A stretch of DNA of 64,000 bases from Candidatus Omnitrophota bacterium (GTDB lineage: Bacteria > Omnitrophota > Gorgyraeia > Tantalellales > Tantalellaceae), in the NCBI GenBank assembly GCA_028715965.1, contig JAQUQS010000005.1:54904-118903 (forward strand), in the 5' to 3' direction. Position numbers and translations under genes: made by a program. The notes beneath the pieces were generated by a model. The model made no database searches, was not told the origin of the DNA, and saw only the letters and a list, made by a program, of their open reading frames with translations. Shown here in pieces: positions 2,732-45,474 of this stretch; positions within the stretch are counted from its first letter, which is position 1; every line of letters begins with the position of its first letter.

Positions 2732-4081
2732 TCAGAATCCCAGCCTGCCCTTCATGTACTCCTTGATGTTGGACGTGTCCACCCTTTCCTGCTCCATGGA
2801 ATCCCTTTCACGTACGGTCACTTTGTTGTCTGAAAGGGAATCCACATCGATAGTGACGCAGAAAGGCGTGCCGATCTCGTCCTGCCTGCGATAAAGCCGC
2901 CCAATCGCGGCGGTATCGTCATAGACCACCCTGTAATCGCCCTTAAGGTCTTCCCTGATCTTATGGGCCATTTCAACTATTTCCGGTCGATTTTTCAACA
3001 AAGGTAATACGGCTATTTTAATCGGCGCCAGTTTTTTGTCCAGAGATAAATACACTCTCTGTCGGTCTTTGACGGTCTCTGTCCTGTACGCGTCGAGCAG
3101 GAAAGCAAGGACGCCTCTGTCCACCCCGCCGGAAGGTTCGATGACATATGGGGTGTACTTCTCTCCTGTGGCGCTGTCAAAGTACTGAAGCTCCCTGCCA
3201 CTTATCGTTGAGTGCTGCCGAAGATCATAATCCGTCCTGTTGGCGATACCTTCGAGTTCCGACCACCCCATCGGGAAAAGATACTCAACATCATGGCACC
3301 TTTTGGCATAATGCGCCAGCTCGTCCTTATCGTGTTCGCGGAGCCTTAGCTTCTCCTTCTTTATGCCCAAGGAAGAATACCATGAAAGCCTTTCATTGAC
3401 CCAGAAATCGTACCATTTATCGTCATCTCCCGGCTTAACAAAGAACTCTAGTTCCATCTGCTCGAATTCCCTGCTGCGAAAAGTAAAGTTCCCTGTAGTT
3501 ATCTCGTTACGAAAAGACTTCCCTATCTGGGCCACCCCGAAAGGCGGTTTGCGTCTCGTGGAAATAAGTACGTTCTCGAAATTCACGAATATACCCTGGG
3601 CCGTCTCCGGCCTGAGATATACATCCACCCCCTGTCCCTCAAGTGACCCGACCTGTGTCTTGAACATGAGGTTGAAGCTTCTGGGTTCCGTCAGGGACCC
3701 TCCGCAATCAGGGCATTCTTTCTTCTTGAGGTGATCTATCCGGAACCTCTTTTTGCACTCCATGCAATCGACCATCATGTCGGCGAACGAACCTACGTGC
3801 CCCGAGGCCTTCCATGTCTCCGGGTTCATTATTATGGCGGCGTCCAGGCCCTCTATGTCGTTCCTGTCATAGACCATGGCCTTCCACCACTCGCGCTTGA
3901 CATTGTTCTTTAGCTCGACCCCCAAGGGACCGTAATCCCAAACACTACCTATGCCGCCATATATCTCGCTGCTCTGGAATATAAAACCGCGGCGTTTACA
4001 GAGATTGGCTATATCCTTGAGCTCTACGTTCACCATACTTCTGTCCGTCATAAAAACCCTTCTATTGTTGTACGATACCAC
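2732..4081 (-). CDS. glyQS: Glycine--tRNA ligase (class II, alpha2 GlyQS type)
   Basis: 449-aa ORF with ..KRRGFIFQSSEIYGGIGSVWDYGPLG.. and the class II core. The true start may be an internal Met (MVNVELKD, about 4036). Confidence 0.9.
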   Translation of the reverse strand: MVSYNNRRVFMTDRSMVNVELKDIANLCKRRGFIFQSSEIYGGIGSVWDYGPLGVELKNNVKREWWKAMVYDRNDIEGLDAAIIMNPETWKASGHVGSFADMMVDCMECKKRFRIDHLKKKECPDCGGSLTEPRSFNLMFKTQVGSLEGQGVDVYLRPETAQGIFVNFENVLISTRRKPPFGVAQIGKSFRNEITTGNFTFRSREFEQMELEFFVKPGDDDKWYDFWVNERLSWYSSLGIKKEKLRLREHDKDELAHYAKRCHDVEYLFPMGWSELEGIANRTDYDLRQHSTISGRELQYFDSATGEKYTPYVIEPSGGVDRGVLAFLLDAYRTETVKDRQRVYLSLDKKLAPIKIAVLPLLKNRPEIVEMAHKIREDLKGDYRVVYDDTAAIGRLYRRQDEIGTPFCVTIDVDSLSDNKVTVRERDSMEQERVDTSNIKEYMKGRLGF

Positions 4082-4829
4082 GAGCCTGCAAATGCTCGAT
4101 GAAACGCATGGATCTGGCCTGCCGACCCACGTGGAACGATATGAAGGCCTTCAGTATGCCTTCCATCTCCCGGCCCACTTCCCGGCTGACCTTTATGTGC
4201 CCCGTTCTTTCTATATCCCTGTTAAGTATGTTCTCCATGAACCTCAGCGTACCCCGGGAAACATGCGTCGCGGAACTCTTGCCCTCGGAGCATGAGGCGC
4301 ATCGTATACCGCCGCCCGCGACATCGAACACTACGCTCTCTCCCGGCGCGCCGCCACATACGATACACGTTTCCAGTTGCGGTCTCACCCCTATGGCTTC
4401 CAGCATCTTAAGTTCAAATATCCTGCCGGCCCTTCGGGGGCTTACGTCCGAAGCCAGCATCTTGAGGGATTTATCAAGAACTTCGTAAAGCGCCGGATTC
4501 GGGTCATAATCACTGGAGACCGTGTCTATTAATTCTATAAAATAATTGGCATATGTCAACCTTTCTATGTCGTTCCTGACAGGGTAATAGCCCTCGGTCG
4601 CCTCGCAAGCCGTTATCAGGTCCAGTCCCTTGCGGGCCTTTCGATAGAAAAGTAATGACACTTTAGTTAAGGCCTCGAAATTCCCCGCGAACTGAGGATA
4701 CGGGGCCCTAACTCCTTTTATGACCCCTTTTATCTTGCCGAACTCACTTGTATAGACCACGAGTATATAGCTGGTCTCTCTTAACTGGTATTTACGGAGG
4801 ATCACTCCTTCCGCTTTATGTGCGGCCAT
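4062..4829 (-). CDS. recO: DNA repair protein RecO
   Basis: 255 aa with the RecO N-terminal OB fold, a Cys4 zinc motif (CIVCGG..CASC) and the characteristic length. Confidence 0.85.
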   Translation of the reverse strand: MAAHKAEGVILRKYQLRETSYILVVYTSEFGKIKGVIKGVRAPYPQFAGNFEALTKVSLLFYRKARKGLDLITACEATEGYYPVRNDIERLTYANYFIELIDTVSSDYDPNPALYEVLDKSLKMLASDVSPRRAGRIFELKMLEAIGVRPQLETCIVCGGAPGESVVFDVAGGGIRCASCSEGKSSATHVSRGTLRFMENILNRDIERTGHIKVSREVGREMEGILKAFISFHVGRQARSMRFIEHLQARGIVQQ

Positions 4830-35434: not shown

Positions 35435-36448
35435 CTATATCAATCCGTCCGTCTCTTTCAGCCCGGACATTATGTTCATGTTCTGTACGGCCTGGCCGCT
35501 GGCCCCTTTGAGCAGGTTATCAATAACAGAGACTATGATCAGCATGCCCCTGGCGACCTTTATGCCGATGTCGCAGAAGTTCGTACCTGCCGCGCCGGCT
35601 ATATCAGGCATTACCCCTTCGGGCATAAGCCTGACAAAAGGCTCATTCCCATAGGCCGCCTGGAACATCTCCCGCAAGTCCTTTTCCGGCGGTAATCCCT
35701 TATGCTCGACATATATGGTCGAAAGGATACCCCTCCTTACGGGCAAGAGATGCGGAACAAAATTCACTTTTATCTCTCCCTCAGCCGCCAACGACAATAT
35801 GGATTCCATTTCCGGTATATGCTGGTGGGCGTTCTCCTTATAACTTTTGAAATTACCGTCCACCTCGGTAAAGGAAAGCTCGACGGCGGATTTCCTTCCG
35901 GCTCCGGAAGCCCCGCTCTTGGAATCGACTATCACGGTAAGCCCGAGTTCCGACAACATCTTAGCGATGGGCATAAGTCCGAGGATCACACTTGTAGGAT
36001 AACATCCCGGGTTAGCCACCAGTGAAGCGCCACCGATATTTTTCCTGTTCATCTCCGGAAGGCCATAAACAGCCGAACTTATGTTCTTTTTGTCCCCGTG
36101 CTCGATCCCGTAATGGCTGGCATATACATCCGCGTTAAGACGGTAATCGGCGCTAAGGTCCACGACCTTAACTCCCCTCTCCAGGAATTGCGGAGCGACT
36201 TGCATGGACACGGTGTGTGGCAGCGCAAGGAATACCAGGTCACTGCCCTCGGACACCTCGTCCACATCCAGTTTTTTGCAGTAAAGCTCCGTCCGCCCCG
36301 CGAACCTCCGATAAACATCGGCGTATCTTGTCTCTTTATCGAACCTTGCCGTAAGAAAAGATATGTCAGTTCCCGGATGCTTTAGAAGGAGGTCCACCAG
36401 TTCCTGCCCGGAATACCCGGTAGCTCCGACCACCGATACCTTGACCAT
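35435..36448 (-). CDS. argC: N-acetyl-gamma-glutamyl-phosphate reductase
   Basis: MVKVSVVGATGYSGQEL.. and a catalytic Cys region. Start at Met8 of the track ORF. Confidence 0.9.
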   Translation of the reverse strand: MVKVSVVGATGYSGQELVDLLLKHPGTDISFLTARFDKETRYADVYRRFAGRTELYCKKLDVDEVSEGSDLVFLALPHTVSMQVAPQFLERGVKVVDLSADYRLNADVYASHYGIEHGDKKNISSAVYGLPEMNRKNIGGASLVANPGCYPTSVILGLMPIAKMLSELGLTVIVDSKSGASGAGRKSAVELSFTEVDGNFKSYKENAHQHIPEMESILSLAAEGEIKVNFVPHLLPVRRGILSTIYVEHKGLPPEKDLREMFQAAYGNEPFVRLMPEGVMPDIAGAAGTNFCDIGIKVARGMLIIVSVIDNLLKGASGQAVQNMNIMSGLKETDGLI

Positions 36449-36555
36449 TTTGTCTCCTTTTCGCCTCATATAAATACCCCGTGCCTAGTGATAATTAATT
36501 ATAACTAACATGTATAGTTTGGGTTATATATAATAAGCCTTTGGTGTGAAACACA

Positions 36556-36584
36556 AGTATAAGATAAATATTATTTGATGTCAA
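36556..36584 (-). promoter_or_regulatory. Consensus sigma70 promoter for the arg operon (TTGACA-17-TATACT)
   Basis: Minus strand reads TTGACATCAAATAATATTTATCTTATACT. The -35 is plus 36579-36584 and the -10 is plus 36556-36561. The leader to argC is about 100 nt. Confidence 0.6.
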
Positions 36585-36710: not shown

Positions 36711-37106
36711 CTATCTCTTAGAGAACTGGAATCTTTTGCGTGCTCTTTTACGACCGTACTTCTTACGTTCTTTCGCTCTTGGGTCCCTGGTAAAGAAACC
36801 GGCCTTTTTAAGCTTGAGGCGCAGGCTCTCATCTGCCTTCAAAAGCGCCCTTGATATACCCAACCTCAAGGCCCCCGCCTGACCGCTTATCCCACCGCCA
36901 TCTATCGTGGCCAGTACGTCATATTTTCCCTGCAGGCCAGCGAGCTTGAACGGCATCATTACATCAATGCGGTGTGTCTCTCTGGGGAAGTATTCCTCAA
37001 ACTCGCGTTTGTTGATCTTGACCTTACCCGTCCCGGGTCTGAGCCTTACCCTGGCTACAGACTCTTTTCTTCTCCCGACGGCCACGAACTCAATAAGTTG
37101 TTCCAT
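36711..37106 (-). CDS. rpsI: 30S ribosomal protein S9
   Basis: 131 aa with the [21 protein letters not shown]-terminus. Confidence 0.95.
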
Positions 37107-37122
37107 TTATTAGCACCTCTTG

Positions 37123-37548
37123 TTATATCTTTTTTTCAACCGGTTTCTGCGCCGTATGAGGATGCGCCTCACCAACATACAGCTTAAGTCTCTTCATCAT
37201 CCTGTCCCCGAGCCTGTTCTTCGGAAGCATACCCTTGACCGCGTGCCTCAGTATATGTTTCGGGTGTTTCTCCTGCATATCCGAATAAACGGTCACTCTC
37301 TGCCCTCCGGGATATCCCGAGAATCTTTTGTATTCCTTCTGAAGGCTCTTCTTGCCCGTTATCTTGATCTTTTCGCAGTTAAGGACAACAACACCTGCTC
37401 CATTATCAACATGCGGGGTAAAATCAGTACGGTACTTCCCTTTCAACAGGGTCGCGATAGCCGTAGCCGCCCTGCCCAGCACTTTGCCCTGGACATCAAC
37501 AACGAACCATTCGTGACAGGTTTCCTCATTTTTTACCATTTTAGTCAT
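37123..37548 (-). CDS. rplM: 50S ribosomal protein L13
   Basis: MTKMVKNEETCHEWFVVD.. aligns to the E. coli L13 N-terminus, so the start is the internal Met11 of the track ORF. Confidence 0.9.
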   Translation of the reverse strand: MTKMVKNEETCHEWFVVDVQGKVLGRAATAIATLLKGKYRTDFTPHVDNGAGVVVLNCEKIKITGKKSLQKEYKRFSGYPGGQRVTVYSDMQEKHPKHILRHAVKGMLPKNRLGDRMMKRLKLYVGEAHPHTAQKPVEKKI

Positions 37549-37786
37549 CTTCATGTGCGATCCATCCTCAATGATCATTTATAAATATAATAAGATCAGG
37601 CACCATATGTCATAACACCGAAATGCCAAATAGAGTTGTAAAATTAACATATTTAATAAGGTTTGTCAAGCTGAAAAATATATTAACCGTGTGGCAGGGC
37701 ATCGGGACCTCCCTCCACGGGAAAGACGGAGAACCTTTGTCCCGGCGGGATATGTCCTGGGCTTGATGTTATCCCCTTGCGAGCAT

Positions 37787-37956
37787 CACTTACCGATCAC
37801 ATTTTCGTATAACGCCCTCACCTGGTCCTTATAATACCGGTTGAACACCGATTTGAGTTCGGTCTCCCGTACGTTCTTTCGGAGAAAATCGCTTCTTTTC
37901 TTGTTCTTACGGCGTTGTTCTACCAGGGTCACCTTGTGTGAATAGTTCTTTTTCAT
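37787..37956 (-). CDS. 56-aa highly basic hypothetical protein, translationally coupled to the AbrB-fold gene (not in ORF track)
   Basis: ATG at 37956 overlaps the upstream TGA (ATGA) and a GGGGGG RBS precedes it. Translation: MKKNYSHKVTLVEQRRKNKKRSDFLRKNVRETELKSVFNRYYKDQVRALYENVIGK, stop at 37787-37789. No recognisable family. Confidence 0.5.
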
Positions 37957-38126
37957 CCGTATCCCCCCTTATCCTTCTTGGCAAAGACCACGGTACCGTC
38001 ATCCCTCACCTCAAATATCACTTTATCCCTGCTTTGTATCTGGAAATAATCCTGTAAGACCTTGGGAATGAAGATCTGTCCCCGGTCTGAAACTGTTGCC
38101 TTGAACTCAAAACGCGGTTTGCGCAT
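37953..38126 (-). CDS. AbrB/MazE (SpoVT-AbrB swapped-hairpin) family small DNA-binding protein, antitoxin-like
   Basis: MRKPRFEFKATVSDRGQIFIPKVLQDYFQIQSRDKVIFEVRDDGTVVFAKK.. is a typical looped-hinge AbrB/MazE fold. Start at 38126 with a GGAGG RBS. The track start at 38156 is a TTG inside the repeat array. Confidence 0.7.
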   Translation of the reverse strand: MRKPRFEFKATVSDRGQIFIPKVLQDYFQIQSRDKVIFEVRDDGTVVFAKKDKGGYG

Positions 38127-38141
38127 AACGAATAACCTCCA

Positions 38142-38181
38142 ACAAGTATAAAACAAGTATATAACAAGTATTTATACTTGT
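38142..38181. promoter_or_regulatory. Iteron/operator array: ACAAGTAT x3 at 11-bp phasing plus an inverted copy
   Basis: Direct copies start at 38142, 38153 and 38164. An inverted ATACTTGT at 38174-38181 forms ACAAGTAT-tt-ATACTTGT with copy 3. The array lies immediately upstream of the RBS of the AbrB-fold gene. Confidence 0.65.
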
Positions 38182-38280
38182 CAATAAAACATAAGACTAT
38201 TTTTTGGAATAAGTTACAAGATATTATTTTGGAAATTAGATAGTGAAAATGACCTACATATGACGTTCAGAACGCGAGGA

Positions 38281-39015
38281 TCAGTATCTCACTTCGACAA
38301 GGAACAGCCCTTTGGCAGGCGCAGTGGGACCGGCGTGTACCCTATCCTTTTTCTCCAGTATGGCCTTCATGCTGCCCGGGGGGAGGTATCCCCTTCCGAT
38401 ATCCACCAGCGTACCCACTACGTTACGTACCATATTGTACAGGAACCCGTCGCCCTTAACGGTCACGTGCACGTTCTTCCCGGCCTTACGGATACTTATA
38501 CCGGATATGGTCCGCACGGCCCCCCTTTCGATCTTGTCCTTTGCCTGAAATGACTTGAAATCATGTTTGCCCAGAAGCGCCCTGGACTCCTTCCGCATAA
38601 GAGCGATATCCAGCCGGTATGGCACCCTCCAGGAATATTTCTCGATAAAAGGGTCCCTCTGGCGCGAGTTGAAGATATGATATGTATATTTCTTAGAGAC
38701 CGCGCTGAAACGTACGTGGAAATCGGCATCGACCTCTTCCGCCGAGATGACCGAGATGGTCTCAGGCAATACCGGATTTAGCGCGAGAGGCAACTTTTCC
38801 ACGGGTATGGTGTGCGAGGTCTTGAACCCGACCACCTGGCCAAGCGCGTGTACACCCGAATCCGTGCGGCTGGCCCCATGTACCCTGTGCTTACGCCCCA
38901 GCACCCGCCCTAGCGCGCGTTCCATCATTTCCTGTACGGTCAGGCCGTTATCCTGGAATTGCCATCCCTTGTAGTCCGTACCGTCATAGGCGATCACAAG
39001 TTTAATGTTACGCAT
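38281..39015 (-). CDS. truA: tRNA pseudouridine(38-40) synthase
   Basis: IAYDGTDYKGWQ.., RTDSGVHA catalytic Asp motif. Confidence 0.9.
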   Translation of the reverse strand: MRNIKLVIAYDGTDYKGWQFQDNGLTVQEMMERALGRVLGRKHRVHGASRTDSGVHALGQVVGFKTSHTIPVEKLPLALNPVLPETISVISAEEVDADFHVRFSAVSKKYTYHIFNSRQRDPFIEKYSWRVPYRLDIALMRKESRALLGKHDFKSFQAKDKIERGAVRTISGISIRKAGKNVHVTVKGDGFLYNMVRNVVGTLVDIGRGYLPPGSMKAILEKKDRVHAGPTAPAKGLFLVEVRY

Positions 39016-44645: not shown

Positions 44646-45474
44646 CCTGGGCCTCCTTTCCCCTGTTACGGCCCACGGGGTCCAGTCTTTCCCTCAATGA
44701 TTCTCCTACGAGATTAAAGCTCATGACCGTGACCAGTATGGCCATCCCGGGAAAGAACGTAAGCCACCACGCGTAATCTATATAGTTCTTCCCATAGGTT
44801 ATTATGTTCCCCCAGCTTGGCATGGGTATCTGCACTCCCAGCCCCAGGAAGCTGAGAGCGCTCTCTACAAGTATGGCCGACCCGACACTCAGTGTTACAC
44901 TTACATATACAGGCGCCATCGCGTTCGGCAATATATGCCGGAATATTATCCTCATATCCGGGACGTTCTGTATCCTGGCGGACATCACGAAATCCCTTTC
45001 CCTCAGGCTCAGGACCTCCGCCCGCACCAGCCTGCACAACCCCGGCCAGCTGGTGAGCCCTATGACCGCCATGACGTTCATCATATTGGGTCCAAGGAAC
45101 GCTATGACCATCATGATAAGAAAGAACGTCGGAAAACAATACATTATCTCAACAAGCCGCATGATGAGATTATCCACCCATCCCCCGTAATAACCGCTGA
45201 TCCCGCCCAGGACCACGCCAATGGACATCGAGATGAAAACGGCTATAAAAGCCACTGTCAGGGATATCCTGGTGCCGAACACCATGCGGCTGAACACATC
45301 CCTCCCCAGGCTGTCGGTCCCGAAAAAGTGTTCCAATGACGGAGGTTGTACCCGTGAACCGGTGGAAAGCTCCATATGGAGAGGATCATACGGCGCTATT
45401 TTAGGGGCGAATACCGCCAGGACCACCATAAGCGCGATTATCGTACCTCCTATATATACGCCGTATCTCCTCAT
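44629..45474 (-). CDS. oppC: Oligopeptide ABC transporter permease (OppC/DppC-like)
   Basis: BPD_transp_1 permease with 6 TM helices and an EAA-like loop. Confidence 0.85.
   Translation of the reverse strand: MRRYGVYIGGTIIALMVVLAVFAPKIAPYDPLHMELSTGSRVQPPSLEHFFGTDSLGRDVFSRMVFGTRISLTVAFIAVFISMSIGVVLGGISGYYGGWVDNLIMRLVEIMYCFPTFFLIMMVIAFLGPNMMNVMAVIGLTSWPGLCRLVRAEVLSLRERDFVMSARIQNVPDMRIIFRHILPNAMAPVYVSVTLSVGSAILVESALSFLGLGVQIPMPSWGNIITYGKNYIDYAWWLTFFPGMAILVTVMSFNLVGESLRERLDPVGRNRGKEAQDDAGA

Follow-up and report, generated by a model that had tools for sequence, protein, structure and literature searches.

Gene organization of the locus

Two small genes lie between truA and rplM in the window, by which we mean the whole 64,000-nucleotide stretch of Omnitrophota DNA that was analyzed. 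The gene order is asd, truA, the 57-aa gene, the 56-aa gene, rplM, rpsI, and argC, and the minus strand carries both small genes and every neighboring gene of the stretch (Table 1). The preliminary description of this DNA had placed an AbrB-fold gene between truA and rplM-rpsI. A match to the Pfam model PF15937 bears this out, and the coordinates are identical. The second gene had been described as an unannotated, strongly basic, helical ORF of 56 aa at 37787 to 37956. Homologs and purifying selection indicate that it is a real gene, AF2 predicts helices, and its translation is the sequence quoted at the time. The start was also correct, and the stop end was one base off (37786). However, the ORF is not unannotated, because GenBank has it as [quoted passage not shown]

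The two genes share an ATGA overlap, in which the ATG of the small ORF occupies 37956 to 37954 and the TGA of the AbrB gene occupies 37955 to 37953. The small ORF has its own G-rich ribosome-binding site, AAGGGGGGA, within the 3' end of the AbrB gene. Both elements are as described earlier, and translational coupling of the two genes is supported.

Table 1. Positions of the two small genes, their control signals, neighboring genes, and the acidic third gene of some related loci
Feature	Position	Strand	Basis or remark
truA	38281..39015	-	
-35 hexamer TTGACA, module promoter	38179..38184	-	promoter scan; conserved in all related loci
-10 hexamer TATACT, module promoter	38156..38161	-	inside third operator repeat; conserved in related loci
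Putative operator	38142..38181	-	palindrome and direct repeats over promoter
Ribosome-binding site GGAGG of AbrB gene	38136..38140	-	from sequence
AbrB/PrlF-like single-domain DNA-binding protein, 57 aa, PHH49_04025	37953..38126	-	start ATG at 38126
G-rich ribosome-binding site AAGGGGGGA of small ORF	37962..37970	-	within 3' end of AbrB gene
Small basic protein, 56 aa, PHH49_04020	37786..37956 (including stop codon)	-	homologs, purifying selection
rplM-rpsI promoter, TTGACA-N17-TAATTT with TG extension	37641..37669	-	conserved; context, not part of the module
rplM	37123..37578	-	
rpsI	36711..37106	-	
argC	35435..36469	-	
Acidic third gene	L015 3707-3877; L026 908-1051; L027 3778-3918; L031 2819-2974		

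The 57-aa protein has a single AbrB-type domain

The 57-aa protein matched PF15937 (PrlF_antitoxin) with an E value of 8.9e-8 and 32.7 bits, marginally above the cutoff of 32, and the match spans only positions 2 to 45 of the 99 in the model. Matches to PF04014 (18 bits versus a cutoff of 24.7) and TIGR01439 (26.9 bits versus 28.3) were below the cutoff. We found 112 clusters of AbrB homologs, 52 to 74 aa long and 62 to 80% identical to the window protein, about 100 of which carry a precomputed PF15937 match. The AbrB proteins of aligned pairs have a mean mutual identity of about 65 to 68%. The AF2 monomer model (pLDDT 82.5) has a strand at residues 6 to 11, a helix at residues 22 to 27, and two further strands at residues 35 to 40 and 46 to 51. 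The top Foldseek match of this model was SpoVT (2w1t) at an E value of 0.7, a weak score that we attribute to the modeling of an obligate-dimer fold as a monomer. The PF15937 match, although marginal, places the protein in the AbrB/MazE/SpoVT swapped-hairpin superfamily, whose members have a beta-beta-alpha-beta-beta topology and form interleaved dimers.

The window protein stops 6 to 9 residues past the DNA-binding domain. Across the family, this tail has 3 to 20 residues of mixed charge. Therefore, it is too short for a toxin-neutralizing segment.

The preliminary description had considered that the pair might belong to a known family, such as a MraZ-like regulator. MraZ consists of tandem AbrB-like domains and autoregulates the dcw cluster. 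Like the window protein, it is an AbrB-superfamily regulator that heads an operon and has short direct repeats near its own promoter. However, MraZ is a double-domain protein of roughly 150 aa (PF02381), whereas the window protein is a single domain of 57 aa with no PF02381 match, and its site is not a dcw cluster. The repeats differ as well, with GTGG-type repeats upstream of mraZ in one related locus (L018) versus the TACTTG operator word of the window module.

The 56-aa protein represents a family of small basic proteins

The small protein has a net charge of +11, and the family mean is about +10 (range, +4 to +15). Homologs of the small ORF were found at 54 to 60% identity. Among 1.84 billion representative proteins, 45 clusters at 50% identity were found with a profile search, and a word-indexed profile search gave at least 142 clusters at 90% identity, nearly all of them 55 to 65 aa long. 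A narrow-alignment scan of the genome collection recovered two loci only. When the window was compared with five related loci, pN of the small ORF was 0.26 to 0.36 against a saturated pS of 0.76 to 1.0, and dN/dS was 0.054 in the one unsaturated pair. The homologs and the purifying selection indicate that the small ORF is a real gene and not a chance frame. It had been allowed earlier that the ORF might be noncoding and have no conserved homologs; the number of homolog clusters and the low pN speak against this, and the selection and profile evidence rules out a spurious ORF.

In members of the family, the N-terminal half is basic and the C-terminal helix is near invariant, with the sequence (V/I)(F/Y)NxYY(K/R)DQVxALYRAV, conserved as VFNxYYKDQVxALYRAV. 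AF2, run with 116 sequences, placed two helices at residues 10 to 25 and 31 to 54 (pLDDT 80.6). The protein is thus predicted to have a short extended N terminus, a very basic helix (RRxNKK), and an amphipathic C-terminal helix (YYKDQVxALYRAV). There are two subtypes, marked by HSHKVTIxxxRRxNK (the window type) and IQACExGGSIYGKKR, and identity between small partners of different subtypes drops to 25 to 35%.

The earlier view that no described pair has such a partner holds, in that the small protein had no match in Pfam, NCBIfam, PADLOC, PHROGs, PDB sequences, or PDB folds. When 116 homologs were scanned singly against Pfam and PHROGs, only subthreshold noise was returned. Judged by these searches, the family matches no described family in Pfam, NCBIfam, PHROGs, PADLOC, or PDB. 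Some homologs (P0059, P0065, and P0140) carry the JGI label "lysine/ornithine N-monooxygenase." This is an annotation artifact that stems from subthreshold PF13434 matches (best E value, 0.014).

The module promoter is overlaid by a conserved putative operator

A promoter scan found TTGACA-17-TATACT at 38184 to 38156, with 11 of 12 consensus matches. The palindrome ACAAGTAT-AA-ATACTTGT (38164 to 38181) overlaps the -35 box and the spacer. Two more copies of ATACTTGT follow at 11-bp spacing, one over the -10 box (38153 to 38160) and one in the start-site region (38142 to 38149). There are eight copies of ATACTTGT in the window, versus 1.23 expected, and four of them are at the module operator.

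This arrangement is conserved. In 204 kb, the only copies of CAAGTA-N4-TACTTG are those at the module promoter, with exactly one per related AbrB locus. The block TTGACAAGTAwwwwTACTTGyTATATACTTGy is kept in every AbrB-bearing locus with enough upstream sequence, and the promoter-operator block is the same at the truA/rplM, lepB/pgsA, and DUF1846/icd sites. AbrB-type autoregulators are well known, and proteins of the AbrB/MazE type typically bind their own promoter. From the repeat anatomy and this known behavior, we infer that the AbrB protein binds the TACTTG repeats and represses its own operon.

One further copy of ATACTTGT, at 36553, forms the -10 region of the argC promoter. This promoter, TTGACA-N11-CATTTATTyTATACTTGG (36556 to 36584, minus strand), shares the word TATACTTG with the module operator. 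It is conserved between rpsI and argC in five related loci (L001, L008, L013, L031, and L032), and in L031 a second TACTTG lies just 3' of it. Because TATACTTG is also the -10 context of argC, part of the repeat conservation may be promoter driven, or argC may be a second target. The argC promoter could be a second AbrB target, or the word could simply be a preferred -10 context. The copies of ATACTTGT at 44867, 59148, and 63036 were dismissed as regulon sites, being within coding regions in a GC-rich context. The minus strand carries the only three consensus-like promoters of the form TTGAC-N17-19-TAnAnT in the window (38184, 36584, and 4559).

The rplM-rpsI operon has its own promoter downstream of the module. 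Its block, TTGACAAA...ATATGTTAATTTTACA, recurs in four related loci (L002, about 4676 to 4704; L008, about 4707 to 4736; L012, about 398 to 427; L016, about 3739 to 3768). A simple scan predicted no terminator in the interval from the small ORF to this promoter. No Rfam family reached the gathering threshold in the region or in the whole 64-kb window, and hence neither an rplM leader nor any other RNA of a known kind is present. The window also has no tRNA genes.

The two genes are paired across loci and have diverged together

We surveyed the gene upstream of the small ORF in 33 sequences, namely, the window and 32 related loci, of which about 21 are distinct. The directly upstream gene is the AbrB gene everywhere except in L016 and the mraZ loci. 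The stop and start codons overlap or closely abut in L002, L013, L015, L017, L022/L023, L026, L027, and L030 to L032. At least 29 AbrB clusters match a small-ORF cluster in the length of the longest contig, which is a proxy for location on the same contig. For three blind-picked AbrB homologs (synteny loci), a small-ORF homolog lay immediately downstream each time.

The second subtype of the small protein follows the same type of AbrB gene at lepB/pgsA-der (L015 and L029), at DUF1846/icd (L017, L022, and L023), and in other contexts (L019 to L021 and L026 to L028). Some metagenome-assembled genomes (MAGs) hold both subtypes, and some have two paralogous copies at different loci. In 31 of 37 pairs, an AbrB protein shares its partner subtype with its nearest relative. 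Therefore, the two genes have duplicated and diverged together.

There are two kinds of exceptions. In L016 (GCA_015231715.1; 3420 to 3677), there is no AbrB gene, and the small gene, which lies between truA and rplM, is directly under the control of the same operator-promoter. In L018/L025 (L018 2807 to 4572) and the distinct L024 (245 to 2055), the small gene sits between mraZ and rsmH in the dcw cluster and lacks the TACTTG operator. MraZ is itself a regulator of the AbrB superfamily.

In four loci (L015, L026, L027, and L031), the module includes a third small gene, which encodes an acidic protein of about 50 aa with the motif YKTVIEIVCDAYDEDEAYxTAGEYLRGN...C(K/R)T. This gene follows the small basic gene in three of the loci; in L031, it comes after the operator-promoter and before the AbrB gene. 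Its product had no Pfam match, and the gene is absent from the window. The acidic protein could be an antagonist of the basic protein.

The pair appears to be vertically inherited within Omnitrophota

The order truA-AbrB-small-rplM-rpsI was found in all 10 other distinct type-1 loci with a readable upstream gene. The longer order (leuB)-asd-truA-AbrB-small-rplM-rpsI-argC-argJ is present in L001 to L011, L013, L014, and L030 to L032. This synteny spans divergences at which synonymous sites are saturated. The homologs of either protein with a named source are all from Omnitrophota/Omnitrophica. No match to the small protein was obtained among 50,697 phage records and 72,556 plasmid records or in IMG/VR. 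The pair had been described as an inserted, acquired cassette. However, the arrangement is identical in relatives, as ancestral synteny, and the pair is therefore not a fresh insert. By its gene order and distribution, it is a vertically inherited operon, so far found only in the phylum Omnitrophota.

One locus is labeled otherwise. L013 (CAYVIW010000066.1) is listed as "uncultured Planctomycetia bacterium," yet it has an Omnitrophota-type module and synteny, and its small protein is 58% identical to that of the window. The bin may therefore be misclassified.

In the window, about 100 nt separate truA from the module, versus 0.6 to 1 kb in relatives (L008, 3533 to 3988; L002, 3548 to 4205). 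The L008 spacer holds two 147-nt copies at 95% identity, and the L002 spacer holds repeats with a period of about 270 nt and long inverted repeats. Both look like small repetitive insertions.

Comparison with known systems

PrlF-YhaV and MazE-MazF resemble the module in having an AbrB-fold first gene, an overlapping second gene, and a repeat or palindrome operator over the promoter. YhaV is a RelE-fold ribonuclease toxin, and the toxin-binding region of PrlF is the second half of the PF15937 model. Unlike these systems, the window module has no C-terminal toxin-binding segment, since its AbrB protein ends at residue 57. It also has no YhaV, MazF, or PIN toxin; the partner is instead a basic protein of 56 aa that is predicted to be helical. 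The window pair further differs from both systems in its apparent vertical inheritance, its restriction to one phylum, and its absence from mobile-element collections. For type II toxin-antitoxin systems in general, a patchy, horizontally mobile distribution is expected, often with plasmids, phages, or islands as carriers, and that of the module does not fit.

Very small toxins do exist, HicA being a miniature type II toxin. At about 58 aa and with its basic character, HicA is similar to the small protein. However, it has a dsRBD-like alpha/beta fold and a HicB partner, whereas the window protein is predicted to be all helical, and the HicA model did not match it.

The small protein also invites a loose analogy with partners of DNA-binding proteins, namely, Hha/YmoA with H-NS, SinI with SinR, and AbbA with AbrB. 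These are likewise helical, have about 55 to 70 aa, lack a DNA-binding fold of their own, and act through a transcription factor to which they bind, as we propose for the small protein. Hha is basic, as is the small protein. In contrast, AbbA mimics DNA and is acidic. The searches gave no link to Hha/YmoA, SinI, or AbbA in sequence or fold.

A model for the module and its alternatives

Our best explanation, to which we give a little under an even chance, is a self-repressed operon for a minimal AbrB dimer and for a basic two-helix protein that is translationally coupled to it and acts with it on DNA as a partner or co-regulator. In this model, AbrB dimers would bind the TACTTG repeats over both boxes (-35 and -10) and the start site of their own sigma-70-type promoter, and this binding would repress the operon. 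The small protein would be a stoichiometric partner of the dimer. It would supply the single-domain AbrB protein with an oligomerization or bridging surface and with positive charge that contacts DNA, roughly as Hha acts on H-NS. What we infer is thus that the AbrB protein binds the repeats and represses its own operon and that the two proteins touch each other, as well as the sign of the small protein's effect. We favor a partner role because of the translational coupling, the near-obligate adjacency, the codiversification, the lack of a C-terminal domain in the AbrB protein, the association with mraZ, and the shared operator. The acidic third gene of some loci counts against this role, in that the model does not explain it.

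A broader proposal, which is possible and which we advance tentatively, is that the 56-aa protein founds a family of small basic partner subunits for AbrB-fold factors and that together they form a phylum-wide Omnitrophota complex. Equally tentatively, the family may pair with MraZ in some lineages, and the complex may act on promoters besides its own, such as the neighboring argC promoter with its shared word TATACTTG. As an equally new alternative, the small protein may be the miniature toxin of a three-part system that includes the acidic third protein in some genomes.

The small protein might instead be regulated cargo, namely, a lineage-specific nucleic acid-binding factor that is, for example, ribosome or nucleoid associated, with the AbrB protein as its dedicated repressor and no complex between them. 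We consider this unlikely overall. For those loci in which the small gene has no adjacent AbrB gene, it fits as well as the partner model does. In these, the small gene stands behind the same operator in L016 and within the dcw cluster in L018/L024. The strong positive charge of the family, with its mean near +10, would suit such a factor, as would the frequency of translation genes among the neighbors (rplM-rpsI, truA, rsmH, lepA, and der) and the lack of a predicted terminator between the small ORF and rplM. However, the translational coupling to the AbrB gene is tight whatever the neighbors are, the DUF1846/icd context is not related to translation, and the two genes codiverge as a pair. 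Ribosomal protein families matched the small protein at noise level only.

The preliminary description had called the module a toxin-antitoxin-like or regulator/co-regulator cassette. In the former case, the AbrB protein would serve as antitoxin and autorepressor for the small basic protein, a new miniature toxin. The part of the toxin-antitoxin claim that concerns layout stands, with two small, presumably cotranscribed genes and a putative autoregulatory operator. The antitoxin-first order, the gene overlap, and the palindromic operator at the promoter all agree with it, and the top Pfam and NCBIfam matches of the AbrB protein are to PrlF antitoxin. Some MAGs have two paralogous copies per genome at different loci, and the acidic third gene at some loci could be a neutralizer. 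However, the AbrB protein lacks a C-terminal neutralizing segment, and it is more conserved (62 to 80% identity) than the putative toxin (about 25 to 60%). The small gene also occurs as an "orphan" (L016, L018/L025, and L024). Synteny is kept across saturated divergence in a family confined to one phylum, none of the phage, plasmid, and IMG/VR records listed above holds the small protein, and PADLOC gave no match. We therefore regard a toxin-antitoxin function as quite improbable.

Finally, the pair might be a split PrlF/MazE-type antitoxin that has lost its toxin, with the small ORF as the detached C-terminal half, given that the combined 57 and 56 aa come near to full-length PrlF (about 111 aa) and that, of the 99 model positions, the AbrB protein matches just the N-terminal 45; we reject this very improbable reading on selection and profile evidence, since the small ORF matches neither PF15937 nor any other model even at an E value of ≤10, is strongly basic where antitoxin C termini are typically acidic, and is under strong purifying selection as a separate, phylum-wide gene with its own ribosome-binding site.

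Implications

What appears to be new here is a family of small partners that pairs throughout the phylum with an AbrB protein reduced to its domain and that occasionally pairs with mraZ. Neither the family nor these pairings were present in the libraries and literature that we searched. A literature search found no papers that link Omnitrophota with AbrB. Judged by their titles and abstracts, the papers that mention "Omnitrophica" together with toxin-antitoxin systems were irrelevant.

Omnitrophota are uncultured bacteria, and to our knowledge essentially nothing is known of their gene regulation. The scope of the finding is modest under either the partner or the toxin reading, in that it concerns a lineage-specific regulatory pair and not a new kind of system. 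The module nevertheless offers a handle that can be tested in vitro, in that its promoter-operator is conserved, its AbrB-fold protein is minimal, and the partner is conserved yet found in no protein family library. Should the small protein prove toxic, it would represent a new class of miniature toxins. If, as in the model that we favor, it completes the single-domain AbrB protein and perhaps MraZ, this would be a new way of building AbrB-type regulators, and it would advise caution in the automatic labeling of short "PrlF family antitoxin" genes as parts of toxin-antitoxin systems.
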